Of a DNA stretch of 11,861 nucleotides, positions 284 through 11,861 are shown one piece after another. Under the pieces are notes generated by a model that was given only the letters and a program-made list of their open reading frames with translations, was not told the origin of the DNA and made no database searches. The first letter of the stretch is position 1; each line of letters starts with the position of its first letter. Made by a program: the position numbers and the translations under genes. The stretch lies in the IMG/VR virus record IMGVR_UViG_2585427739_000006, one strand, 5' to 3'. Source of the DNA: a virus. Taxonomy: Duplodnaviria > Heunggongvirae > Uroviricota > Caudoviricetes.

Positions 284-312
284 CGATTTCTTTATCTCTT
301 ACATCAGACGAG

Positions 313-344
313 CGCCGGTTGCAGAATACCAGTCACAACCGGCG
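313..344. other. Perfect 9-bp inverted repeat (hairpin) between the exonuclease stop and the IS1 end
   Basis: CGCCGGTTG (313..321) pairs with CAACCGGCG (336..344) around a 14-nt loop. No flanking U-tract on either strand, so not a canonical intrinsic terminator. Confidence 0.4.
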
Positions 345-355
345 ACAGTTGAACA

Positions 356-2827
356 TTAAGAATCAGCCTGACTCGGGATCAGTTTTTGCCAGATAACTGA
401 AACGTATTTTGCCTGGTAACGGGCGTCATCAAGTGCATTATGGCGCTCACCTTCGAATGGAATAGCCGTTCTGGCATCGAAGTCTATGGCTTTCCCCAGC
501 TCAACGATTGTGCGTACATCGCGATCGTTGTAGTAACGCCACGGGCAGGGGATCCCCTGCCGTTCGTATGAACGGCGCAAAATCGTGTTGTCGAAGTTGG
601 CTCCATTTCCCCAGACCTGAACAAAAAATTCACCGGAGTTTTCGTCGATAAATTCCCGCAATTGTAACAGTGCATCATCTAACGGGATTTCATCGGTCAT
701 AATGGCAGATTGCGCTTCGCGTGATTGCTTAAGCCACCATTTAATGGTGTTCCGATCAATGACTCCGCCAGCAGTTTCCAGATCGATAGTCTTACTAAAT
801 TCCGGTCCCATATCTCCGGTTTGCGGATCGAAAAATATTGCACCTATTGAGATGATCGGGGCATCAGGATTTTTTCCCATGGTTTCAAGGTCGATCATTA
901 GATGGTCACACGTCCTGCTGGTGGATGTGATTTCGTGATGACCGTTCACCTTAATTGAGTGATCTGCCGTCTCGCCAGTTTCATTATCGCTATTGTGATG
1001 CTGATTGCCGCCAGTGTTCTCCTTGTGTGGATGTTCAGCGCCTTCCATTTCCTCCGGATCATCTTCCTGAACTTCAACCTGATATTCTTCATCGAATGTT
1101 TCTTGATATGTTGCGTCGCCCATCACCGCGCCACAATCAGGGCAGTTGCCGCCGCCGGTCTGACCGCAGGCGGTGCAGACTTTTTCCACTTCCTGTTGCG
1201 CCACTGGTTCAGGCTGTTTCGTTTCTGGCTCGTTTTGTAACGCATTTGTGCTGTTTTGTTCCGCTTTTTGGTAGTTCCGTTCCGATTCATGCTGGTTCTG
1301 GTTCACAGAATCGCGGGTCTGGATCCCCTTAACCCATTTCGGATCATTCGGGTCACTAATCCCTTCAACAAATTCACCACGTGATGCAGCAAGCAACTTA
1401 TCGGCGTCAGGCTGGCTGATATTGGCTGCCTGCATAATTTTGTTTACTTCGTCAGCGGTAACTTTTATCGGCTCTGGTTGTTCTGAATCTTCAGCGGTAT
1501 CTACATTTTGCGGTAAGCCCGTGTATGTGCCATTTTTTCGGGCAAAATATTCTTCTTTTGTGATTTCAGTGGCGCCAGCAGCCAGTGCCTTATCCAGACC
1601 AGAAAGTTTGTTTGCGCGACCGTATTTTTCTCCGTCCTTATCTGCGAAGAGGAAATAGAACGGCCCCTCACGCTCTACAGATGGTTCAGCTTCCGGCGCG
1701 GTTTCATTTTTTGGGATATCAGATACCTCAGTTTCCACTGCATCAGTTTGTGTTTCTGATGACTGGAGAACATCAACAGTGCCCAGGTCTGTTTCTTCAT
1801 TCTCAAACACGCCCTTTGTCGTCAGGTATTCGCAGATATATTTGTTCAGTGCTATGGGATCTTTGTGAATGTCGATCGGACGCTCACGGACAAGGCCAAA
1901 AATAGTCTGGCGGTCGTAGCGAAGGGCATCAGGCTGTTTGCGCATTGATGCCGAGATACGCTTCCAGTCTTCGCGGTCGTTGTCGATAACTTCATTTTTT
2001 GCCCAGCGATGGATGCTGCCGTCAATGTTTCCGGCATCCACATCACCAGGCCAGAGAGCGTAGGCCAGTTCGTCATCCAGTGTTTTCCATGTCTGCTTGT
2101 ATTCGCGATGAATGGCAGCAATGACCAGGCTGATTTTTCCTGTTGAATTTTCAGTGTGCTGTTGATTGACTCTGGCGCGGGCGAGATCAACAACAGACGT
2201 GTATTTTCCGGTTTCCTTGCGTTCACCTTCGCGACGTTTTTTCCAGATGCGCATCTCTGCCTGAATTTCGGGCCATTTAGCACCAGGAATACATTTATGC
2301 TTAACCCACCCAATGGCGTGCAACTTAAGCTCCGGATACATGGCGTTAACTTCTGGCATTTTCATCAACGCTTCAACGATATGTCCGTCGAATGTTGCCA
2401 TGTCTTCCTGCAACAATTCCTGTGCGCTAATAACCATATCAACGGTGATGTTTTCACATGTGTCGAACTTAACCATGACAGCGTTCTGTACTTCAGGGGC
2501 CAGCTTGTCAAAAGTGACGTTCATCGGATCGGATTCAGTCTCAACCGGGACAAAAGAAGCAGACTCCTCATCCCAGCGGTTTTCCTGCATATATTCAGCA
2601 TCCCATGAATCGAGGGCAGGGCGGGGTATGCCAGGTTTATCCTCGCAGACAATAAATTTATAAGCGCAGTCCTGAGCAGCCGGATAATGTTCCAGGAACT
2701 GCCAGTGAAATTTTGCTCGAGCACGGCGTTCGTCGCCAGCTTCAATGGCTGTGGCTACAGCCACAGCGCCTTCTTCCCTTGTTGCCAGTTCGTCAGGAAT
2801 AGCGGCGCAAATAAAGACTTTACTCAT
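356..2827 (-). CDS. Large phage-type exonuclease (823 aa): unknown N-terminal/central region, CxxC-x7-CxxC zinc ribbon, acidic/His-rich linker, C-terminal DEDDh (DnaQ-like) 3'-5' exonuclease domain
   Basis: Uninterrupted 2.47-kb ORF with ATG at 2827 and a GAGG about 10 nt upstream. The last ~185 aa (nt ~359..913) carry Exo I MIDLETMG, Exo II VWGNGANFDNTIL and Exo III HNALDDARY motifs. Zinc ribbon CTACGQTGGGNCPDCG maps to nt 1133..1177. It sits at the position of ydfE downstream of ydfD in the Qin arrangement as I recall it. Confidence 0.8.
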   Translation of the reverse strand: MSKVFICAAIPDELATREEGAVAVATAIEAGDERRARAKFHWQFLEHYPAAQDCAYKFIVCEDKPGIPRPALDSWDAEYMQENRWDEESASFVPVETESDPMNVTFDKLAPEVQNAVMVKFDTCENITVDMVISAQELLQEDMATFDGHIVEALMKMPEVNAMYPELKLHAIGWVKHKCIPGAKWPEIQAEMRIWKKRREGERKETGKYTSVVDLARARVNQQHTENSTGKISLVIAAIHREYKQTWKTLDDELAYALWPGDVDAGNIDGSIHRWAKNEVIDNDREDWKRISASMRKQPDALRYDRQTIFGLVRERPIDIHKDPIALNKYICEYLTTKGVFENEETDLGTVDVLQSSETQTDAVETEVSDIPKNETAPEAEPSVEREGPFYFLFADKDGEKYGRANKLSGLDKALAAGATEITKEEYFARKNGTYTGLPQNVDTAEDSEQPEPIKVTADEVNKIMQAANISQPDADKLLAASRGEFVEGISDPNDPKWVKGIQTRDSVNQNQHESERNYQKAEQNSTNALQNEPETKQPEPVAQQEVEKVCTACGQTGGGNCPDCGAVMGDATYQETFDEEYQVEVQEDDPEEMEGAEHPHKENTGGNQHHNSDNETGETADHSIKVNGHHEITSTSRTCDHLMIDLETMGKNPDAPIISIGAIFFDPQTGDMGPEFSKTIDLETAGGVIDRNTIKWWLKQSREAQSAIMTDEIPLDDALLQLREFIDENSGEFFVQVWGNGANFDNTILRRSYERQGIPCPWRYYNDRDVRTIVELGKAIDFDARTAIPFEGERHNALDDARYQAKYVSVIWQKLIPSQADS

Positions 2828-2920
2828 TTTGTTTTAACCTCATGACAGATTTAAGGATGAACAAATCCCTGCCATTGCTGGCATATAAGAATGAAACCGG
2901 ATATTTATTACGGAACTGTT

Positions 2921-3112
2921 TTAAAGACCTGCCGGGATTTCGATATTATCCTGGTGAATAACTTTATCGACCGGGTAACAGTTACCGGGAATTTTCTGTT
3001 CGGTTGCTGCAGTCATACACTCCTGCATTGTCCTGTGAACACTGACTGCAATATCAACTGGCTCTCCGGAAACAAGAAAAACTGTCAGAACAAGCGCAAA
3101 TGCTGAATTCAT
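2921..3112 (-). CDS. ydfD: YdfD-like small membrane/lysis protein (63 aa) with N-terminal hydrophobic segment
   Basis: ATG at 3112 with AAGGA 8 nt upstream; protein MNSAFALVLTVFLVSGEPVD... matches my recollection of Qin YdfD. Its start overlaps the dicB stop in an ATGA arrangement. The ORF-track start at 3166 lacks a ribosome-binding site. Confidence 0.6.
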   Translation of the reverse strand: MNSAFALVLTVFLVSGEPVDIAVSVHRTMQECMTAATEQKIPGNCYPVDKVIHQDNIEIPAGL

Positions 3113-3297
3113 TGTGCACATCCTTTTGGCATCAGACGTAAACGAGCCAGCATTGAAACAATGCATATTTTATTTAATAGCTCCCGTTCTTGTTTTCTCT
3201 TGTTAATGGCATCTTCAGTAAATACAGGGTTACTGATAGTGACACCAATTTCAAAACAACCTTCAGACGTATTAACGTTTGGTAATAACGTTTTCAT
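3109..3297 (-). CDS. dicB: DicB cell-division inhibitor (62 aa)
   Basis: ATG at 3297 with GAGGA 7 nt upstream; translation MKTLLPNVNTSEGCFEIGVTISNPVFTEDAINKRKQERELLNKICIVSMLARLRLMPKGCAQ matches E. coli K-12 DicB as I recall it. The longer 97-aa ORF-track version has no ribosome-binding site. Confidence 0.75.
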   Translation of the reverse strand: MKTLLPNVNTSEGCFEIGVTISNPVFTEDAINKRKQERELLNKICIVSMLARLRLMPKGCAQ

Positions 3298-3466
3298 TAT
3301 CGCGTCCTCAACAATGAATTTTGTGATGCAGTGCCTGGTGCCTCCAGGTGACGTTAACCAGTTAACAATTAACGCCGGATACAGAGAATCCACCCATAAC
3401 ACTGTTTTTGGTTTTAACTGTTCCGCGTGCGCTTAGCCGCATTCACCGCATCACAAAATTCACTTT

Positions 3467-3524
3467 AAAAACGGCGGCAGAGCAGTCACGGAGTAAAACT
3501 GATACCGCCAAACGTCACCAGAAA
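3467..3524 (-). ncRNA. dicF: DicF small RNA (ftsZ-targeting sRNA of the dicB operon), 53 nt plus 3' U-run
   Basis: Minus-strand sequence TTTCTGGTGACGTTTGGCGGTATCAGTTTTACTCCGTGACTGCTCTGCCGCCG followed by TTTTT. This agrees at 52 of 53 positions with the K-12 DicF sequence as I remember it, and it lies immediately upstream of dicB as in Qin. Confidence 0.75.
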
Positions 3525-3643
3525 ATTGATAACAGAGGGCGTTGCAGCGGGGTTGTCACTTAAGCGTATGGTCAACCTGACAACTCGGTGTCCTCAACGG
3601 GGAAGAAATACCCCCGCCATACTTACCGCCGCGCCATTTCGCG

Positions 3644-3720
3644 GGTTGCCACAACCGGAAGCGCACGGTCGAATTAAATTTAACGACACCGTACAGTGAG
3701 ACGAACTTCGCCGTGCGCTT
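3644..3720 (-). promoter_or_regulatory. Structured untranslated leader upstream of dicF: 10-bp perfect inverted repeat with nested palindromes (candidate RNA processing or regulatory structure)
   Basis: AAGCGCACGG (3659..3668) pairs with CCGTGCGCTT (3711..3720) around a 42-nt loop that itself contains GTCG/CGAC flanking the palindrome TTAAATTTAA (3674..3683). A small GGTTG/CAACC hairpin lies at 3644..3656. No convincing ORF in 3525..3799 on the minus strand. Confidence 0.3.
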
Positions 3721-3799
3721 TCGTGTTGTGTGCCTGCTTTTAACCACGTCAGGCGAGGTGGTATCCTTCTTATTCCGAATAACCAAGAAGGAAATCTAT

Positions 3800-4000
3800 A
3801 TGACTAAAGAAGAATTTGTCTCTTATATTTTTGATAAAACGGTTGAAATGTATGCCGCTACTTACGGGTCCTGTAATCCTCTGAATAAACCAGAGGGGAA
3901 AGATGATTTCGACAAAATTTACCGCTTCTTGGAGGACCGCTATATCAAAAGGTTAGAGGACGCAGGGATCAAATCCCCAGTGAAGTCACCATTGTCCTGA
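3800..4000 (+). CDS. Hypothetical protein, 66 aa, AT-rich gene antisense to the leftward operon
   Basis: ATG at 3800 preceded by AAGGA with a 7-nt spacer; first 100 bp are about 37% GC. No recognisable motif. Its 3' end overlaps the convergent 121-aa gene by 32 bp. Confidence 0.45.
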   Translation: MTKEEFVSYIFDKTVEMYAATYGSCNPLNKPEGKDDFDKIYRFLEDRYIKRLEDAGIKSPVKSPLS

Positions 4001-4334
4001 GAACTTGCAGGACGTCATGATCGTAACTTCCATCCAAACCGCGACGGCAAATTGCTTCTCGTATTACCGGAAGCAGTTCGCTGGAAATCTCGGTGCATAT
4101 TTCACCTGCTAATACGCCTGGCTCAAGTGAGAATATTGGTGAACTTACGGTCTTGGTCTCGACAGTTTCAGAGTCAGTGCCAACATTATAAAGCTCAACG
4201 AAAGCGGTCTTGATTTTCCGGGCCAGATCTTTTGCTGGCTCGCTTGCAATATCTTTCCCGATTTCTCGCAGCACAGAATGCAATGTATGAGCTGCTGTTT
4301 TCTGTACATCAGACGGTAAATCTTTAAATTCCAT
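3969..4334 (-). CDS. Hypothetical protein, 121 aa, at the position where a cI/DicA-type repressor would be expected
   Basis: ATG at 4334 with GAGG 6 nt upstream (the ORF-track start at 4346 has none). No obvious helix-turn-helix. Divergent from the rightward operon across a 212-bp intergenic region. Confidence 0.5.
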   Translation of the reverse strand: MEFKDLPSDVQKTAAHTLHSVLREIGKDIASEPAKDLARKIKTAFVELYNVGTDSETVETKTVSSPIFSLEPGVLAGEICTEISSELLPVIREAICRRGLDGSYDHDVLQVLRTMVTSLGI

Positions 4335-4546
4335 CGTCAGCCTCATCAGTCAGTGTTTCTGGCTAACCAGCAACGCGCGCCAGATTCGGTTTTAAACGTT
4401 TTGCTTTTGGTATATGTCATCGCGGTGAACGTACCGTCCTGGTTGGGGAACACGCCACATACAGGAGGCATCTGGCGGCGAGCTTCTGTATGATCCCAAG
4501 GTTTATGACGAATATCGTAAGACGAAGCGGGCGGGGCGGTTGAACA

Positions 4547-5068
4547 ATGAAAATCACTCCTGAACAGGCTCGTGAGGCTCTGGATGCCTGGATATGTCGA
4601 CCAGGAATGACACAGGAGCAGGCGACGATATTAATCACTGAAGCATTCTGGGCTTTGAAAGAGCGCCCGAACATCGATGTTCAGCGTGTCACAGATGAAG
4701 GTGGCGCGGTTGATCAGCGAGCGCTTGGCGTTAATCGAGTGAAGATATTCGAACGCTGGAAGGCTATCGACACTAGGGATAAGCGTGAAAAGTTCACGGC
4801 GCTAGTGCCTGCAATTATGGAGGCTATCCGGATTAATGATTTCAGGTTGTATCGTGAAATTAGTGACGGAAAAAGCATCACGTACATGATCGCCGGGTTA
4901 AACAAAGAATATGGCGATGTGGTGGAGTCCGGACTGCTTTTTGCTGATCCTGCCGTAGTGGATCGTGAAACTGACGAACTTATAGAAAAAGCAATTGCTT
5001 TCAAACTTGCGTATCGACAGCAATACCAACAAAAAGCTGGATGGAATTATGAGCCTTCTTTTTGCTGA
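4547..5068 (+). CDS. YdaT-like protein (173 aa), possible CII-analogous regulator; first gene of the rightward operon
   Basis: ATG at 4547 directly after an in-frame TGA. The segment ...RWKAIDTRDKREKFTALVPAIMEAIR... resembles what I recall of the Rac/CP-933P YdaT family. Assignment is from memory and tentative. Confidence 0.55.
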   Translation: MKITPEQAREALDAWICRPGMTQEQATILITEAFWALKERPNIDVQRVTDEGGAVDQRALGVNRVKIFERWKAIDTRDKREKFTALVPAIMEAIRINDFRLYREISDGKSITYMIAGLNKEYGDVVESGLLFADPAVVDRETDELIEKAIAFKLAYRQQYQQKAGWNYEPSFC

Positions 5069-6014
5069 ACGCCCACTGGTTATAAACACACAGCTTGCGA
5101 TGAAGATTGGCTTAAATGAAGCCATTGTGTTGCAGCAGTTGCATTACTGGTTGAGAGATACCAATTCCGGCATGGAATGTGATGGTGTTCGCTGGATTTA
5201 CAACACAACGGAACAATGGCTGGAACAGTTCCCATTCTGGTCAGAGTCAACGTTAAAGCGCGCGTTTGCAAGTCTGAAAACGCTGGGGCTTTTGCGTTGT
5301 GAAAAGCTCAATAAATCAAAGCGCGATATGACCAATTTCTACACGATCAACTATGGGAACGAGCTTTTAGATGGTGGCAAATTGAACGAATCCATCGGTT
5401 CAAAATGCGCCGCTCCATCAGGTCAAAATGACACGATGGAAGAGGTCAAAATGAAACGCTCCATTGGTTCAAAACGACCCAATGTCATCGGGTCAAAATG
5501 GCCTGATGATCTTACAGAGAATACAACAGAGATTACTACAGAGAATAAAAACACTTTTCGTCCGGAAGCTTCGCAACCGGACCCGCAGACCGCTGAACAG
5601 GATTTTTTAATCCGGAACCCCGACGCGGTTGTGTTTAGTGCGAAAAAACGCCAGTGGGGTAGCAGGGAGGATTTGGCGTGTGCGCAGTGGATTTGGGGGC
5701 GGATCGTGAACCTTTACGAACAGACTGCCAGCGACGATGGAGAGATCATGCGACCAAAAGAGCCTAACTGGACAGCCTGGGCCAATGACGTGCGCACAAT
5801 GCGGATGCTGGATGGCAGAAGCCACAGACAAATTTGCGAAATGTTTGGTCGGGTACAGCGAGATCCATTCTGGGTAAAAAACATCATGAGCCCGTCAAAA
5901 CTCCGCGAAAAATGGGACGAACTGGTCATCCGCTTGGGACGTTCACCTGTACAGCGTTGTGTGAATCATATTTCTGAACCGGATACAGAAATTCCGCCTG
6001 GTTTCAGGGGATAA
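5049..6014 (+). CDS. Replication initiator, lambda O-like (origin-binding), about 321 aa
   Basis: Long ORF containing the iteron array in its middle, as in lambda O, where ori lies inside the gene. Start is uncertain: ATG 5049 has a weak ribosome-binding site; TTG 4995 and ATG 5100 are alternatives. Overlaps the upstream gene by 20 nt. Confidence 0.7.
   Translation: MSLLFAERPLVINTQLAMKIGLNEAIVLQQLHYWLRDTNSGMECDGVRWIYNTTEQWLEQFPFWSESTLKRAFASLKTLGLLRCEKLNKSKRDMTNFYTINYGNELLDGGKLNESIGSKCAAPSGQNDTMEEVKMKRSIGSKRPNVIGSKWPDDLTENTTEITTENKNTFRPEASQPDPQTAEQDFLIRNPDAVVFSAKKRQWGSREDLACAQWIWGRIVNLYEQTASDDGEIMRPKEPNWTAWANDVRTMRMLDGRSHRQICEMFGRVQRDPFWVKNIMSPSKLREKWDELVIRLGRSPVQRCVNHISEPDTEIPPGFRG
5392..5501. 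repeat. Origin iterons: five direct repeats at 23-24 bp spacing
   Basis: TCCATCGGTTCAAAATG (5392..5408), TCCATCAGGTCAAAATG (5415..5431), AGAGGTCAAAATG (5442..5454), TCCATTGGTTCAAAACG (5461..5477), TCATCGGGTCAAAATG (5486..5501). Core GGT(T)CAAAA(T/C)G ends at 5408, 5431, 5454, 5477 and 5501. Confidence 0.78.
5515..5550. repeat. AT-rich block of three 12-bp direct repeats adjacent to the iterons (candidate DNA-unwinding element of ori)
   Basis: ACAGAGAATACA / ACAGAGATTACT / ACAGAGAATAAA in tandem, immediately after the iteron array. Mirrors the iteron-plus-AT-rich layout of lambdoid origins. Confidence 0.55.
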
Positions 6015-6054
6015 GTGTTGATTTCAGGTCATGAGGTAATTTTAAGGAGGACTT

Positions 6055-6453
6055 GTGGCAAAAGTTTTTACACAGGAAGAGCGGGAAAAAATTAAAGAGC
6101 AGGTGGTCGAACTTGTGCGCCAGAGCGGTCGCGAGACATTACGACAGTTGGAAGCTAAAACAGGTGCGACAAGATATCTGATGAGCATTCTTGCCAGAGA
6201 GCTGGTTGCCAGTGGTTATGTATACAACTCCGGCTACGGGTTATTCCCGTCTGAACAGGCACGAAAGGACTGGCAAAATGCCCGCAAAAAACTCTCTAGG
6301 GCGAAGGTGAAGAAACCCGCTGTGGTTGATCCGGACCTTATCTGGTCACTACCTGATGGAGAAATACGTCGCTACGACAGTCGTCTAAACATAATCTGTC
6401 GCGAGTGCCGGAAGAGCGAAGTTATGCAGCGCATACTGGCATTTTATCAGTGA
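6055..6453 (+). CDS. Hypothetical protein, 132 aa, possibly a winged-helix DNA-binding protein
   Basis: GTG start at 6055 with AAGGAGG at 6044..6050 (short 4-nt spacer). The segment ETLRQLEAKTGATRYLMSILARELVASGYV looks helix-turn-helix-like. No family recognised. Confidence 0.55.
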   Translation: MAKVFTQEEREKIKEQVVELVRQSGRETLRQLEAKTGATRYLMSILARELVASGYVYNSGYGLFPSEQARKDWQNARKKLSRAKVKKPAVVDPDLIWSLPDGEIRRYDSRLNIICRECRKSEVMQRILAFYQ

Positions 6454-6545
6454 AATTTTCGTTATTTATAGACGTAACTAGATTAAAGAGCATTAGTTCA
6501 GATGTGAATTGACATTTTCACGGCACAGGATTGAGCTAGCGTGGT

Positions 6546-6571
6546 TGTCTGCTTTGCGTCAAAAGCAGATA
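6546..6571. other. Hairpin in the 181-bp intergenic region, with a nearby consensus -35 hexamer
   Basis: TCTGCTTT (6548..6555) pairs with AAAGCAGA (6562..6569) around a 6-nt loop, with no U-tract after it. TTGACA lies at 6509..6514 but no good -10 follows at 16-18 bp. Confidence 0.3.
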
Positions 6572-6634
6572 TTACCAGATTTAGACATCTATTCCCGATA
6601 GCCCTGCTCTGATGCCACACTCTGTGCTATTTTC

Positions 6635-7096
6635 ATGACCCCAATAAAAATATTTATGACTATTGCTGATTTCAAACGGCCTAAATTGGAGCTCCCAAAC
6701 GGGGCAAACAAACTACTACTGCACTCTTGCTGTGCTCCATGTTCCGGTGAAGTGATGGAGGCGCTTCAGGCCTCGGGAATCGACTATACCATCTTTTTCT
6801 ACAACCCGAACATTCATCCTCAGAAAGAGTATTTAATTCGTAAGGATGAGAATATTCGCTTTGCTGAACAACACGGCGTGCCATTTATTGATGCTGATTA
6901 CGACACAGACAACTGGTTTGAACGTGCCAAAGGAATGGAATGGGAACCCGAGAGGGGGATCCGTTGTACCATGTGTTTTGACATGCGTTTTGAGCGGACA
7001 GCGCTGTACGCTGCTGAAAATGGTTTCAGTGTGATCAGCAGTTCACTGGGCATTTCACGCTGGAAAAATATGCAGCAGGTTACCGTCACTGGATAA
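6635..7096 (+). CDS. QueH/DUF208-like protein (153 aa), possibly C-terminally truncated
   Basis: Contains [20 protein letters not shown] and [11 protein letters not shown], which match the signature motifs I associate with the DUF208/QueH family. It is shorter than typical QueH and ends at a TAA that is in frame with the next gene. No ribosome-binding site at either candidate ATG (6635, 6656). Confidence 0.5.
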
Positions 7097-7171
7097 TCTC
7101 AGTCAGATTGCCTTACTCCGAACGCCCACCGCGTCCGTCCCGTACATTCCAGCAACGCATCTGGAGGTAAC

Positions 7172-8221
7172 GTGCGGGTATTACTTCAACCTGTTCTGGT
7201 ACCGGAACTCGGGCTGGTGGTCGTTAAGCCGGGCCGTGAATCCATGCCGGTATTCCACAATACCCGGGTACTGGTGGAGCCGGAACCGAAAAGCATGCGT
7301 AATCTGCCGTCCGGGGTCGTTCCTGCCGTTCGCCAGCCGCTGGTGGAAGACAAAACATTGCTGCCGTTTTTCAGTAACGCACGGGTAATTCGTGCTGCTG
7401 GTGGTGCTGGTGCATTGTCTGACTGGCTGTTGCGCCATATTAAATCCTGCCAGTGGCCACACGGCGATTATCATCACAGCGAAACCGTTATTCACCGTTA
7501 TGGTACCGGCGCAATGGTGTTGTGCTGGCACTGCGACAACCAGCTGCGTGACCAGACATCCGAATCACTCGAGCAACTTGCTCATCAAAACCTGTCAGCA
7601 TGGATGATTGACGTCATCGGTCACGCAATAAGCGGTACGCAGGAGCGTGAATTATCTCTGGCTGAATTATCCTGGTGGGCGGTCCGCAATCAGGTGGCGG
7701 ACGCGCTACCGGAAGTGGTATTACGTCGCTCGCTGGGATTACCAGCGGAAAAAAACTGCTCGGTGTACCGCGAAAGCGACATCGTACCGGGAGAGCAGAC
7801 CGCCACCAGCATATTGAAACAGCGCACAAAAAATCTTGCACCGTTGCCTCACGCCCACCAGCAACAAAACCCATCACAGGAAAAGACGGTGGTAAGCATC
7901 ACCGTTGATCCAGAGTCTCCGGAATCTTTCATGAAGCTGCCTAAACGTCACCGTTGGGTTAAGGAGAAATACACACGCTGGGTTAAGACACAGCCGTGTG
8001 CTTGCTGCGGTATGCCAGCCGACGATCCGCATCATCTGATTGGTCACGGGCAGGGCGGAATGGGAACCAAAGCACATGATCTCTTTGTGTTGCCTTTGTG
8101 CAGAAAGCATCACGACGAGTTGCATACGGATACCGTGGCATTTGAAGAGAAGTATGGCTCCCAACTGGAGCTGATTTTTCGATTTATCGATCGCGCGCTG
8201 GCAATTGGTGTGCTGGCCTAA
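7172..8221 (+). CDS. DUF968 (YdfU-like) protein with C-terminal HNH-type zinc-finger nuclease motif, 349 aa
   Basis: GTG start at 7172 with GGAGG at 7163..7167. C-terminus has [18 protein letters not shown]...[10 protein letters not shown] (CxxC...HH...CxxHH). Its length and its position just upstream of Q match Qin YdfU as I recall it. Confidence 0.78.
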
Positions 8222-8238
8222 TTTTGTGGAGTAAGTTG

Positions 8239-8616
8239 ATGCGTGATATTCAGATGGTTCTTGAGCGTTGGGGGGCATGGGCGGCTAATAATCATGAAGA
8301 TGTGACCTGGTCGTCCATTGCCGCCGGTTTTAAGGGATTAATTCCTTCAAAAGTAAGATCTCGTCCGCAATGCTGTGACGATGACGCGATGATCATTTGT
8401 GAATGTATGGCTCGCCTGAAAAAAAACAACAGCGATTTACATGATTTATTGGTGGACTATTATGTCGGCGGCATGACTTTTATGGCGCTTGCACGTAAGC
8501 ATGGGCGATCTGATTGTTGGGTTGGCAGGATGCTCCAGAAAGCTGAGGGCGTAGTGGAGGGCATGCTGATGGTGTTGGATCTCCGATTGGAGATGGATGC
8601 TGATTGTTCGAAATAA
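8239..8616 (+). CDS. Late-gene antiterminator Q, short phage-82/DLP12 QuuD type (125 aa)
   Basis: ATG at 8239 with GGAG 7 nt upstream. The protein [24 protein letters not shown]... resembles the short Q family as I recall it, and it is followed by a short leader and intrinsic terminator as expected for a pR'-tR' unit. Confidence 0.75.
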
Positions 8617-8628
8617 TTAAAGGAAAAG

Positions 8629-8657
8629 TTGCTGTCTGATTTTCATTAGTCTAACAT
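8629..8657 (+). promoter_or_regulatory. Candidate late promoter (pR'-like)
   Basis: TTGCTG (8629..8634), 17-bp spacer, TAACAT (8652..8657). An imperfect palindrome AACATTTTAAATGTT (8653..8667) overlaps the -10/start region. Weak hexamers; speculative. Confidence 0.2.
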
Positions 8658-8715
8658 TTTAAATGTTGGAATCGCAACGTAGTTATTATCATATAACAGC
8701 TTGTTTCCTGATTTA

Positions 8716-8743
8716 GCCAGCCTCCCCAAAGGCTGGTTTTTTT
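8716..8743 (+). terminator. Rho-independent terminator (tR'-like), the expected target of Q antitermination
   Basis: Stem CCAGCCT (8717..8723) pairs with AGGCTGG (8730..8736) around loop CCCCAA, followed by seven T (8737..8743). An A-tract precedes it on the other strand, so it may also act weakly on the convergent blc transcript. Confidence 0.8.
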
Positions 8744-8771
8744 CTAATAAGTATCATTTCGGGTGGGGATT

Positions 8772-9296
8772 TTATTGTTTAACCCATAATAGTTCATTGA
8801 CATTGAATCCCAACTTTTGAGCGGTACGCACATAGTCTGCTTTTACATTATCTGGAATAGTTTGGGTCCTTGCCAGAATCCATAGGTATTCTCTGTTCGG
8901 ACCACTGACAAGAGCATACTTATACTCATCATCCAGTTTGATTACATTATAGCCACCATAGAAGGGGCCAAAAAACGAAACTTTCAACGCTGCAGTTTTA
9001 GTATCTCCAGTAAAGTATGCTTTACCTTCGCTCTCGCTCCATTTGTTTTTCGTTGGATCGTATCCACGGTTAAGTACGCGAATCCCTCCGTCGTTCCGTT
9101 TTTCATAAGTAGCGCTGACCTGTTCCAGACCACGTTCGAACCAGTTCTCGAGGCGAGCTATTTCATACCATTTTCCGAGGTAGCGGTTGGCGTCAAAATT
9201 TGTAATCGGCTGCACACCTTTAGGTGGTGTCGGGGCCTTACATGCTATAAGAGTGAAAGAGAGTGCAATGCCAGTCAACACAGGCCATAACTTCAT
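8772..9296 (-). CDS. blc: Bacterial lipocalin Blc-family outer-membrane lipoprotein (174 aa), diverged from E. coli chromosomal Blc
   Basis: Signal peptide with lipobox LIAC (Cys19). Conserved lipocalin segments NFDANRYLGKWYEIAR, GKAYFTG, ALKVSFFGPFYGGYNVI and YLWILART. AGGA 8 nt upstream of the ATG at 9296. Confidence 0.88.
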   Translation of the reverse strand: MKLWPVLTGIALSFTLIACKAPTPPKGVQPITNFDANRYLGKWYEIARLENWFERGLEQVSATYEKRNDGGIRVLNRGYDPTKNKWSESEGKAYFTGDTKTAALKVSFFGPFYGGYNVIKLDDEYKYALVSGPNREYLWILARTQTIPDNVKADYVRTAQKLGFNVNELLWVKQ

Positions 9297-9356
9297 AATA
9301 AATCCTGTACTTTTGATAGTTGAGAGGTAAGCGTCAACGGAGCACCGTATTGACGC

Positions 9357-10970
9357 TTATTTATTAGTGAGTACTACGTTCCATGGCAGGAGTTCGTCAA
9401 CTCGGTTGGAAGGCCATTCCGGCAGTACGCTCAGGATATGGCGCAGATACGCTTCCGGATCGATACCATTCAACCGGCAGGTGCCGATCAGCCCGTACAA
9501 CAGTGCACCACGCTCGCCGCCGTGATCGCTACCGAAGAACACGTAATTTTTCTTTCCGAGACAGACTGCACGAAGCGCTCTTTCCGCTGTGTTATTGTCC
9601 GCCTCCGCCAGACCGTCATCACAGAAGTTGCACAACGCAACCCAGTGCTTCCTGATATACCGGAACGCATCTCTCAGACGGCATTTTTTCGATAACGTGT
9701 GTTCTTTCTCCTGCATCAGCTTATACAGGGAAGTCAGTAGCGGTTTACTCTGCATTTGCCTGACCGCCAGGCGTTCAGACACCGGCAACCCGCGTATTTC
9801 GTGCTCAATGGCGTACAGTTCGCCGATTAGTTTCAGTGCTTCTTCCGCCGTCGCGCTTTTGGTACTGATATATACATCGTGGATTTTGCGCCGCGCATGA
9901 GCCCAGCATCCTGCTTCCGTCAACGCGCCGCCTTCACGTTCGGCACTGAACAGCCGATCGTAACCTGCGAACGCATCTGCCTGCAGGATACCCCGGAAGG
10001 GACGAAGGTGTTGCTCCGGATGTTTACCCTGATGGTCCGGTGAGTAGGCGAACCAGACCGCCGGAGGTTCTGGCGAACCGGCATTTCGGTCATCCCGGAC
10101 ATACGTCCAGATATATCCTGTTTTCGCCTTCTTCCTGCCCGGTGCCAGTACTTTTACTGGTGTGTCATCAGTGTGAACCTTGCGGGTGTTCATCACATAA
10201 CTGTACAGGGCATCATTCAGCGGCGTCATTAACTGGCAGCACGCATCAACCCAGTTGGAGAGTAAGGCACGGCTCAGTTCGACACCCTGGCGGGCAAAGA
10301 TTTCACTCTGACGATACAGTGGCAGGTGTTCGCAGTATTTTCCCGTTAACACGCGGGCAAGTAACCCCGGGCCCGCGATACCACGCTCTATCGGACGGGA
10401 TGGTGCCGGTGCTTCAACGATGCAGTCACATTTTGTACAGGCTTTTTTTACCCGTTCTGTGCGGATCACTTTCAGGGCGCTGCTCACCAGTTCCAGTTGT
10501 TCTGCGCTGACTTCCCCCAGATAATCCAGCTCACCGCCACACTCCGGGCAACAGCTTTCTTCAGGCTCCAGGCGGTATATTTCACGGGGGAGATGTGCCG
10601 GTAACGGACGACGATGGCGCGACTGTCGCAACTGGCGGGGAACCAGCGGGTCATCCTCACGCCCACTGTAACGATCGCTTTCCTGCTCGCGTTGTTTCAG
10701 CAGGGCTTCAGCCTGTTCAACCTCACGACGCAGTTTTTCAGAACGGGTTCCGAACAGCATCCGGCGCAGTTTTTCTATCTGAGCCCGCAGATGCTCTATT
10801 TCCCGTTCATCTTCTTCGATCTTTTCTTCGGCACGTGCCAGTGCAGAGCGCAGGAAGGCCTCCGTCTCTTCAACCAGACTCAGTTGCTGGTCTTTCTGAC
10901 GGAGGGCTTCAGCCTGCTCAGAGAGCAGCCTTTCCAGCTCAGCGATGCGAATGAGGTATTTCTGACTCAT
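9357..10970 (-). CDS. IS66-family transposase TnpC (537 aa)
   Basis: Long ORF with a coiled-coil/leucine-zipper-like N-terminus, a CxxC...CxxC zinc-finger region (CCPECGG...CTKCDC) and an acidic catalytic core, as in IS66 TnpC. Confidence 0.9.
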   Translation of the reverse strand: MSQKYLIRIAELERLLSEQAEALRQKDQQLSLVEETEAFLRSALARAEEKIEEDEREIEHLRAQIEKLRRMLFGTRSEKLRREVEQAEALLKQREQESDRYSGREDDPLVPRQLRQSRHRRPLPAHLPREIYRLEPEESCCPECGGELDYLGEVSAEQLELVSSALKVIRTERVKKACTKCDCIVEAPAPSRPIERGIAGPGLLARVLTGKYCEHLPLYRQSEIFARQGVELSRALLSNWVDACCQLMTPLNDALYSYVMNTRKVHTDDTPVKVLAPGRKKAKTGYIWTYVRDDRNAGSPEPPAVWFAYSPDHQGKHPEQHLRPFRGILQADAFAGYDRLFSAEREGGALTEAGCWAHARRKIHDVYISTKSATAEEALKLIGELYAIEHEIRGLPVSERLAVRQMQSKPLLTSLYKLMQEKEHTLSKKCRLRDAFRYIRKHWVALCNFCDDGLAEADNNTAERALRAVCLGKKNYVFFGSDHGGERGALLYGLIGTCRLNGIDPEAYLRHILSVLPEWPSNRVDELLPWNVVLTNK

Positions 10971-11000: not shown

Positions 11001-11351
11001 TTACAACATTGTCAGTGCGTTAAGGCGGGATGTTTTTGGCTGACGCCAGTCCAGCTTATCGAGGAGCATTGCCAGTTGCGAGCGGGTAATGGATATCTTA
11101 CCGTCACGCACCGCAGGCCAGATAAACTGACCTTCCTCAAGGCGTTTGGTGAACAGGCACAGACCATCAGCATCAGCCCACAGGATTTTAATCGTGTCTC
11201 CCCGTCGGCCACGGAAGATAAACAGGTGACCGGAGAAGGGGTTATCATCCAGCACATGCTGTATCTGCTCCCCCAGACCGTTGAAGGATTTACGCATATC
11301 AGTAACGCCGGCAACGAGCCAGATACGGGTACCTGATGGGAGTGAAATCAT
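11001..11351 (-). CDS. IS66-family accessory protein TnpB (Orf2, 116 aa)
   Basis: 116-aa ORF whose ATG (11351) overlaps the tnpA stop as ATGA. The sequence MISLPSGTRIWLVAGVTDMRKSFNGL... is typical of IS66 Orf2. Confidence 0.88.
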   Translation of the reverse strand: MISLPSGTRIWLVAGVTDMRKSFNGLGEQIQHVLDDNPFSGHLFIFRGRRGDTIKILWADADGLCLFTKRLEEGQFIWPAVRDGKISITRSQLAMLLDKLDWRQPKTSRLNALTML

Positions 11352-11785
11352 CGTCCCCTCCCGGTCAGCTCACGGATCAACACCGTGAGCAGCTCTGGTG
11401 AAGGATTTTCCAGCATCATTTTACCGTAATGGAATTCCACATGGCAGGAAGCTGCACAAGCACCTGATAATGCCTCCGGAGCAGGAGCATCTGTAGCACA
11501 GCGCGGGGTGTCGATAAGTTCCACTGGAACCAGAGTCGGAGAGGCCGGAAAAGATTGTGATACTGTAGGGCCTACAATAGTTGGAGGCATTCTACGAGAA
11601 ATACGTCCTTCTCTTTGCCAGAGGCGTAGCCATTTAAAAATCAGGTTGTTATCAACGCCATGTTCCCGGGCCAGTTGTGCAACATTGGCATTTGGTTTCG
11701 AAGCCAGTTCAACCATATGAAGTTTAAATTCATTAGAAAATATCCGGCGGGTTCCGGAGCGCCAGTCTGTAGGTTTATCCATCAA
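11348..11785 (-). CDS. IS66-family TnpA (Orf1, 145 aa), helix-turn-helix protein
   Basis: First ORF of the IS66 operon, starting 76 bp from the window edge; N-terminal helix-turn-helix-like region. Confidence 0.85.
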   Translation of the reverse strand: MMDKPTDWRSGTRRIFSNEFKLHMVELASKPNANVAQLAREHGVDNNLIFKWLRLWQREGRISRRMPPTIVGPTVSQSFPASPTLVPVELIDTPRCATDAPAPEALSGACAASCHVEFHYGKMMLENPSPELLTVLIRELTGRGR

Positions 11786-11861
11786 TAGAACTCCGTCTAA
11801 TTTAGAAGGAGCTCTAATTTAGTCTGCAAGGAGCAGGTGTTACAGACGGCATTGGCTTTAC

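Follow-up and report, generated by a model that had tools for sequence, protein, structure and literature searches.

A prophage-borne Blc lipocalin gene probably separated from its promoter by an ISEc43 insertion

The DNA under study (the window) is a stretch of 11,861 nucleotides that contains part of a prophage and, at its right end, an insertion sequence. A gene for the small RNA DicF (positions 3472-3523, minus strand; Rfam RF00039, 72.5 bits) marks the prophage as one of Qin/DicB type, and in an IS-free relative, locus L001 of E. coli 503829, the same prophage adjoins ydfJ. The antiterminator gene Q occupies positions 8224-8616 of the plus strand (Pfam Phage_antitermQ PF06530, E=8e-51); in IS-free relatives, where the product is named "antiterminator Q family protein", the annotated start corresponds to position 8239 and the protein comprises 125 residues. 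Convergent with Q, a lipocalin gene spans positions 8772-9296 of the minus strand. Upstream of it, from position 9327 to the right edge at 11861, lies an ISEc43 element of the IS66 family, which has the same orientation as the lipocalin gene.

The prophage also encodes YdaT-like, DUF977, QueH and DUF968 proteins. An ORF of 339 residues at positions 4995-6014 has no Pfam match, and its counterpart in related prophages is annotated as "phage O protein family". The gene of QueH (epoxyqueuosine reductase; positions 6635-7171) is truncated and codes for 153 residues, compared to 221 in the related prophages L101 and L102, and the segment normally located between the QueH and DUF968 genes, which comprises hokD, rem and a 92-aa ORF, is missing. 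This deletion recurs in a number of E. coli genomes with an unbroken match to positions 284-9331. Positions 356-2827 of the minus strand code for an exonuclease of 823 residues; it contains an Rv2179c-like 3'-5' exoribonuclease domain at the C-terminus only (residues 642-813), and no Pfam family matches the long, acidic N-terminal region. The left edge of the window (positions 1-283) is the 3' part of an IS1 element (C-terminus of InsB), and in some genomes that are otherwise identical the match does not begin before position 284. With IS sequence at either end, the window resembles a short-read contig.

The lipocalin gene is intact and codes for 174 residues. The protein belongs to the Blc subfamily: it matches Pfam Lipocalin_2 (PF08212) with E=7.5e-43 and, over its full length (residues 1-174), the 176-position NCBIfam profile NF007786 ("outer membrane lipoprotein Blc") with 312.6 bits, the curated cutoff being 267 bits. 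The solved Blc structures 3MBT, 1QWD and 2ACO align to it without gaps (E=1e-65 to 1e-67), the identity of the mature part to 1QWD being 62.5%, and the lipocalin beta-barrel fold is predicted from these alignments. The N-terminus reads MKLWPVLTGIALSFTLIAC and ends in the lipobox LIAC, which aligns with VVAC of K-12 Blc; the signal peptide MKLWPVLTGIALSFTLIA with the lipidated Cys19 is encoded at positions 9240-9296 (minus strand). Residue +2 after Cys19 is a Lys. According to the usual sorting rule for lipoproteins, no inner-membrane retention signal is expected with a Lys at this position, and the protein should therefore reside in the outer membrane. Judged by its sequence, it probably functions as an outer-membrane lipocalin like chromosomal Blc, which reportedly binds lysophospholipids. 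The original prediction of a diverged but complete Blc with a lipobox is thus borne out.

The protein had further been claimed to be distinct from the chromosomal and plasmid-borne Blc sequences, and this is the case. Its identity to K-12 Blc is 58.6% over the full length with zero gaps, and its identity to plasmid-borne blc copies, which we take to be those associated with CMY-2, is 60.3%. With E. coli chromosomal Blc (b4149; structures 1QWD, 2ACO and 3MBT) it shares the NCBIfam subfamily, the length, the lipobox with its Cys, and a CTACACTT-type box upstream of the gene. In contrast to it, the lipocalin is located in a prophage and not in an ampC-blc-gdx context, has a GC content of 44% compared to 53% for the core E. 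coli blc, and belongs to a second enterobacterial lineage that pairs with a MerR-like regulator and RudS. Near-identity to the host gene, which would have indicated chromosomal flank rather than cargo, is absent. Moreover, 5425 of 5426 complete E. coli genomes have a core blc, flanked by ampC and gdx/sugE, so that the prophage lipocalin is an extra copy, and in prophages and isolated phages the lipocalin lies between Q and the lysis genes. The notion that it is the host's own chromosomal blc has thus practically no likelihood left and was rejected. The plasmid-borne blc downstream of blaCMY-2 is a mobilised Blc-family gene as well; it belongs, however, to the classical ampC-linked lineage, derives from Citrobacter, and is spread by plasmid or ISEcp1, not by a phage.

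Between Q and the lipocalin gene, a hairpin with a T-run that resembles an intrinsic terminator is oriented in the direction of Q (positions 8715-8745, plus strand). It is conserved in L001, is the sole terminator-like site in the segment 8560-9560, and, by analogy with lambda, probably represents the tR'-type terminator of a short late leader transcript. The lipocalin gene is located just past this site on the opposite strand and is antisense to the late operon. In L001, Q is followed by the lipocalin gene (minus strand), a 192-bp spacer, a YbgA gene (plus strand) and an AraC fragment. The order in IS-free prophages is Q, antisense lipocalin, 192 bp, YbgA-family gene, AraC-family gene, holin, lysozyme and Rz, and ten further genome contexts displayed the succession Q, lipocalin, YbgA, AraC, holin and lysozyme. 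The phages Lambda_2E9, IdasGreatGrand and 1H12 contain Q, antisense lipocalin, YbgA, a hypothetical gene and holin; these three and nine more isolated viable phages have the same order. The lipocalin is therefore found between Q and holin in isolated phages as well as in prophages, as is typical of a moron, and it is one of a three-gene cargo that also comprises the divergent RudS/YbgA gene and the AraC-family gene. In K-12, the same slot of Qin is presumably occupied by cspB/cspF.

These contexts confirm the proposed accessory position past Q. The more specific comparison to cargo genes such as stx and bor holds in part. Expression driven by Q, as for stx, was rejected, since the lipocalin gene is on the wrong strand and behind the terminator. 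What stands is the likeness to bor of lambda, a moron for a small outer-membrane lipoprotein that likewise opposes the late operon in orientation and that is transcribed in lysogens; bor is also annotated in Lambda_2E9. The lipocalin belongs, however, to an unrelated family and follows directly after Q, whereas bor is located after Rz.

Lipocalin DNA was detected in 1135 of the 5426 complete E. coli genomes, i.e. in about one fifth, with at most three copies per genome; a full-length gene is present in 1042. The window protein is 100% identical to WP_000780584.1, the common allele that is also present in L001, and this exact protein occurs in more than 20,000 blocks of a large assembly collection. 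The search for the closest Blc lineage, which the original prediction had called for, led to other phage alleles (96-97% protein identity) and then to loci of the Enterobacter group (77-80%). The former are the blc morons of lambda-like coliphages (1H12 gp65; "Lipocalin Blc" of Lambda_2E9), which agree with the window copy in family, slot and gene order; the window copy differs in that it resides in a Qin-type prophage carrying DicF and ISEc43 stands between it and both RudS and its native upstream DNA. Mathieu et al. 2020 (PMC6969025), who studied 19 lambda-like phages of infant-gut E. coli, list blc, described as "a bacterial lipocalin", among the morons that more than 50% of them carry. Its presence in more than half but not all of these phages is what is expected of a dispensable moron gene. 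Among the phage alleles, dN/dS ranges from 0.11 to 0.23, which indicates purifying selection. This selection and the high prevalence lend indirect support to a possible benefit of the lipocalin to the lysogen. The value of the locus as a discovery is small: the gene is annotated and common, blc as a lambda moron is already published, and the IS insertion is private to one strain. Mildly new are a family-wide -10 box, the constant pairing with RudS and the probable descent of the cargo from a chromosomal locus linked to MerR.

In IS-free loci, the lipocalin gene is paired divergently with the gene of RudS (TudS-DUF1722, "YbgA family"), a tRNA 4-thiouridine desulfidase. The phage YbgA-family gene corresponds to RudS_vir (1H12 gp66), which was demonstrated experimentally to lower tRNA 4-thiouridine; RudS genes also occur in MerR/LitR light-responsive operons (Jamontas et al. 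2024, PMC11417400). The nearest non-phage lipocalins, with identities of 73-80% (77-80% for the closest), are from Cedecea, Enterobacter, Leclercia, Buttiauxella, Klebsiella and relatives. In this second enterobacterial lineage, the chromosomal lipocalin genes are divergent from a gene for an MlrA-like regulator of the MerR family, whose best NCBIfam match is MlrA, below the cutoff, followed by CarH. Past the regulator, two arrangements were observed, namely a short gene set that ends in a YbgA-family gene, and a long operon with genes for SnoaL, SDR, amine oxidase, DUF1365, CFA-synthase, DUF2878, DUF3833 and YbgA. The Huaxiibacter lipocalin locus has no MerR regulator. The YbgA proteins of the chromosomal loci are 70-72% identical to phage YbgA; K-12 YbgA matches only its C-terminal half, with 49%.

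The second-lineage loci thus harbour the closest non-phage kin of both the lipocalin and YbgA/RudS, and they have the divergent orientation and two blocks of upstream sequence in common with the phage loci. They differ in that uraH, or the series SnoaL-SDR-amine oxidase-DUF1365-CFA synthase, lies between lipocalin/MerR and RudS, whereas the phage version is devoid of the MerR-like regulator and of the intervening genes and has a 192-bp intergenic region. Sequence comparison suggests that the lipocalin and RudS were most likely captured from an Enterobacter-group locus of lipocalin, MlrA-like MerR regulator and RudS, with loss of the regulator. The synonymous sites of the phage lipocalin are saturated in comparison to the chromosomal relatives and the GC contents differ (44% versus 60%), which indicates that the capture is old. 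The phage lipocalin always being accompanied by RudS, and both having probably descended from one chromosomal MerR-linked locus, a stress-related function of the two together is suggested.

A truncated copy of the Enterobacter-type locus adjoins IS26 on IncFIB plasmids. In the Enterobacter hormaechei plasmid NZ_CP140427.1 (L004, positions 1586-4330), residues 1-110 of a lipocalin with 80% identity are encoded together with the MerR-like regulator, uraH and RudS/YbgA, beside IS26. This locus looks like a chromosomal Enterobacter fragment riding plasmids; 91 plasmid records contain a lipocalin match at 80-90% identity, and L004 is the one whose context was inspected.

The insertion sequence upstream of the window lipocalin has the tnpA-tnpB-tnpC organisation of the IS66 family. 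The product of tnpC (positions 9357-10970) matches Pfam DDE_Tnp_IS66 with E=1.2e-95, and the ORFs tnpB and tnpA occupy positions 11001-11351 and 11348-11782, respectively; all three are on the minus strand. Over 2535 bp, the element is 100% identical to annotated ISEc43 copies elsewhere in E. coli. Its ends and its full length of 2541 bp were defined from the copies L089 and L090, both of which have GTAAGCG terminal repeats and 8-bp target duplications (GGTAGCCA in L089, GGATTTTA in L090); the window therefore ends 6 bp before the far end of the IS. The near terminal repeat begins with GTAAGCG at position 9327, where the IS sequence is GTAAGCGTCAACGG.

The boundary of the IS was set against the IS-free locus L001. 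Native sequence reaches position 9326 and the IS starts at 9327, so that exactly 30 bp (positions 9297-9326), the predicted 5' leader, remain before the lipocalin ATG at position 9296. This is the distance that had been predicted. On the basis of L089 and L090, positions 9319-9326 should constitute the near copy of the 8-bp target-site duplication, GTTGAGAG, the far copy being outside the window; under a model of simple insertion, the far IS flank is expected to read GTTGAGAG followed by TAAGTATGAAAG, with the RudS gene beyond. The exact junction of IS and lipocalin was found in none of the 5426 complete E. coli genomes and in none of the JGI metagenome contigs searched. As no difference from the common allele has arisen in the lipocalin ORF (100% identity), the insertion is recent; it is a private, ordinary event of one strain.

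IS elements have hit the small lipocalin region repeatedly: ISEc43 is found on one side of the gene or the other, depending on the strain, and a further strain has an IS3-family element upstream. In L090 (E. coli 600029, NZ_CM128582.1), an independent ISEc43 copy in the same orientation is located at the 3' end of the lipocalin gene (positions 15042-17582). Its insertion site corresponds to window positions 8767-8774, and the duplication GGATTTTA overlaps the stop codon; in this strain, Q is interrupted by IS1. L102 has lost the RudS gene, and the IS3-family element is found about 370 bp ahead of its lipocalin gene.

A standard promoter scan with the sigma-70 consensus yielded no hit on the lipocalin strand upstream of the gene, in the window and the IS-free locus alike, and a relaxed scan gave only weak or implausible sites. 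The argument for a promoter is therefore based on phylogenetic footprinting, for which the regions upstream of the ATG were aligned from phage, second-lineage and classical blc loci. A box [CT]A[TC][AC]CT is present in 28 of the 34 IS-free regions, 26-35 nt from the ATG. It reads TCTACACTTAG in K-12 and Citrobacter blc, ACTACACTTAA in the second enterobacterial lineage, CTATACTT in Symbiopectobacterium, and TCATACTTAC in the phage and prophage loci, where CATACTT is the counterpart of the chromosomal CTACACTT. Lambda_2E9 has AATACT in place of the CATACT of the other phage copies.

The -10 consensus of sigma-S is TCTATACTTAA, and the conserved CTACACTT-type box resembles it. Both the conservation and this likeness suggest that the phage box is a -10 element. 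PMC4512719, citing Bishop 1995, states that K-12 blc depends on RpoS and that stationary phase induces it; the phage copies might be controlled in the same way. The phage box contains neither the consensus T at -12 nor a recognisable -35 element, and the real promoter could therefore differ; it could be activator-dependent or located elsewhere, for example in a conserved block further upstream. Such a second block, with the motif GAnTAnnCnnAATATAnTAnGAA, is common to phage and second-lineage loci at 60-85 nt upstream of the ATG.

In phages, the second block is the perfect palindrome TTCCTAATATAGTAGGAA. These 18 bp lie between lipocalin and RudS (L001 positions 9772-9789) and are absent from the window. 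The palindrome is present in the IS-free Qin-type prophage and in Lambda_2E9, differs by one base in IdasGreatGrand and in the contig L009, and is homologous to a conserved block of the chromosomal lipocalin-merR intergenic region. It may be a divergent merR/rudS promoter or an operator; the phage module encodes no regulator.

Relative to these elements, the position of ISEc43 is precise. In IS-free sequence, CATACT-TA is directly followed by CTCTCAAC, and ISEc43 is inserted exactly between TA and CTCTCAAC, i.e. 2 nt past the predicted -10 hexamer and ahead of the predicted transcription start (approximately positions 9320-9323, inside the 30-bp remnant). As the original prediction had suggested, comparison with IS-free loci was informative: native sequence extends to position 9326, and the conserved box, found in the IS-free copies directly upstream of the remnant, is just beyond it and thus detached in the window. 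The remnant is devoid of promoter elements, and its Shine-Dalgarno sequence AGGA (positions 9303-9306) is intact. Because the conserved box lies just outside the 30 bp, the native lipocalin promoter has very probably been detached by ISEc43.

Two readings assume instead that promoter function survived the insertion. According to the first, the native promoter is wholly contained in the retained 30 bp and the IS has no effect on expression. A weak match (TCAACT-17-TATTAT, 8/12) could be taken to favour it; the -10 hexamer of this match overlaps the start codon, however, so that transcripts would begin inside the ORF and without a ribosome-binding site. In addition, lineages share only the Shine-Dalgarno sequence within the 30-bp segment, in contrast to the conserved box that closely precedes it. 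We regard this reading as highly improbable. According to the second, a hybrid -10 element was rebuilt at the junction, through which the original promoter remains weakly active. The IS end GACGCTTAC stands in place of CATACTTAC and keeps A-11, T-7 and T-6, and six of the nine box positions are retained in comparison to the IS-free sequence. On the other hand, T-12 is gone together with everything further upstream, including the conserved block some 60-85 nt ahead of the ATG, the distance to the former start site has changed by 1 nt, and the hybrid failed even the relaxed consensus scan. A functional hybrid, by which some promoter activity might persist, is thus quite unlikely, if somewhat less so than a promoter within the 30 bp. 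Detachment of the promoter remains the preferred reading, and a CTACACTT-type -10 box offers a simple test of whether a given blc copy is still attached to its promoter.

With the promoter detached, expression would depend on what the IS supplies, and the original prediction had accordingly suggested that it may rely on IS-borne or fusion promoters. An outward TTGACG hexamer is located 5 nt from the IS tip, but the hexamers at a distance of 15-19 bp include no acceptable -10 element, the candidates TCAAAA, CAAAAG, AAAAGT and AAAGTA all being poor; a -35/-10 fusion promoter at the junction was therefore rejected. Within the last 600 bp of the IS, the lipocalin strand contains no sigma-70-like promoter of at least 8/12, except for the one match that overlaps the ATG. 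What stands of the claim is read-through from tnpC, which is the only supported route of expression. Since the 60 nt between the tnpC stop (position 9357) and the lipocalin ATG contain no terminator-like site, read-through of the transposase operon is possible; on the minus strand, the whole segment 8560-9560 is free of terminator-like sites. In the read-through RNA, the IS terminal region is predicted to form a stem-loop (positions 9329-9358, minus strand; RNA fold of 9280-9400). It is followed by ACCUCUCAAC in place of a U-run and is thus not a canonical intrinsic terminator.

It might be argued that the IS now drives the lipocalin gene, read-through from tnpABC or an outward promoter maintaining or even raising its expression and uncoupling it from stationary-phase control. 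The common orientation of both elements, the short distance to tnpC, the preserved ribosome-binding site and the outward TTGACG hexamer are in agreement with this reading. It is opposed by the poor -10 candidates and the empty promoter scan of the IS end; furthermore, transposase operons are usually only weakly transcribed, and the terminal stem-loop may hinder read-through. We therefore consider IS-driven maintenance or increase unlikely. The most likely outcome is strong down-regulation with weak expression by tnpC read-through.

The model that we consider probable as a whole is thus one of a phage-borne Blc moron that has been cut off from its promoter by ISEc43 and is strongly down-regulated. 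The lipocalin would be a second Blc copy, normally a lysogenic-conversion gene of lambda-like phages and Qin-type prophages, and intact copies would be transcribed in the lysogen from their own promoter with the -10 box CATACTT. ISEc43 would have moved this promoter and the RudS gene 2.5 kb away and left only the 30-nt leader with its ribosome-binding site attached to the gene. Residual expression would then be provided by read-through of the transposase operon.

A more speculative proposal concerns the role of the captured pair. It is conceivable, albeit doubtful, that lipocalin and RudS are the surviving ends of a light/UVA-responsive locus with a LitR/MlrA-type MerR regulator and give lysogens tolerance to near-UV and photo-oxidative stress. 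RudS would then rid tRNA of photosensitive s4U, the lipocalin would deal with envelope lipids that have been damaged, and E. coli lysogens would gain RudS, which E. coli otherwise lacks. The palindrome TTCCTAATATAGTAGGAA could in this case be a retained operator that is read by a host regulator, and in this strain the link between lipocalin and RudS would have been broken by ISEc43. No photolyase gene was found within 4 kb of the second-lineage lipocalins, so that the link to light is indirect, via RudS and the MerR-like regulator. A literature search for lipocalin combined with photolyase, MerR and cyclopropane, or for ybgA combined with lipocalin, retrieved nothing.

The module was also encountered under a foreign label. 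The contig L009 (JARKOR010000135.1), which is 2.1 kb long and assigned to a Candidatus Nanosynbacter MAG, encodes the lipocalin of E. coli phages (97%) together with the beginning of RudS. Mis-binning of coliphage or E. coli DNA into a Saccharibacteria MAG is almost certainly the explanation.
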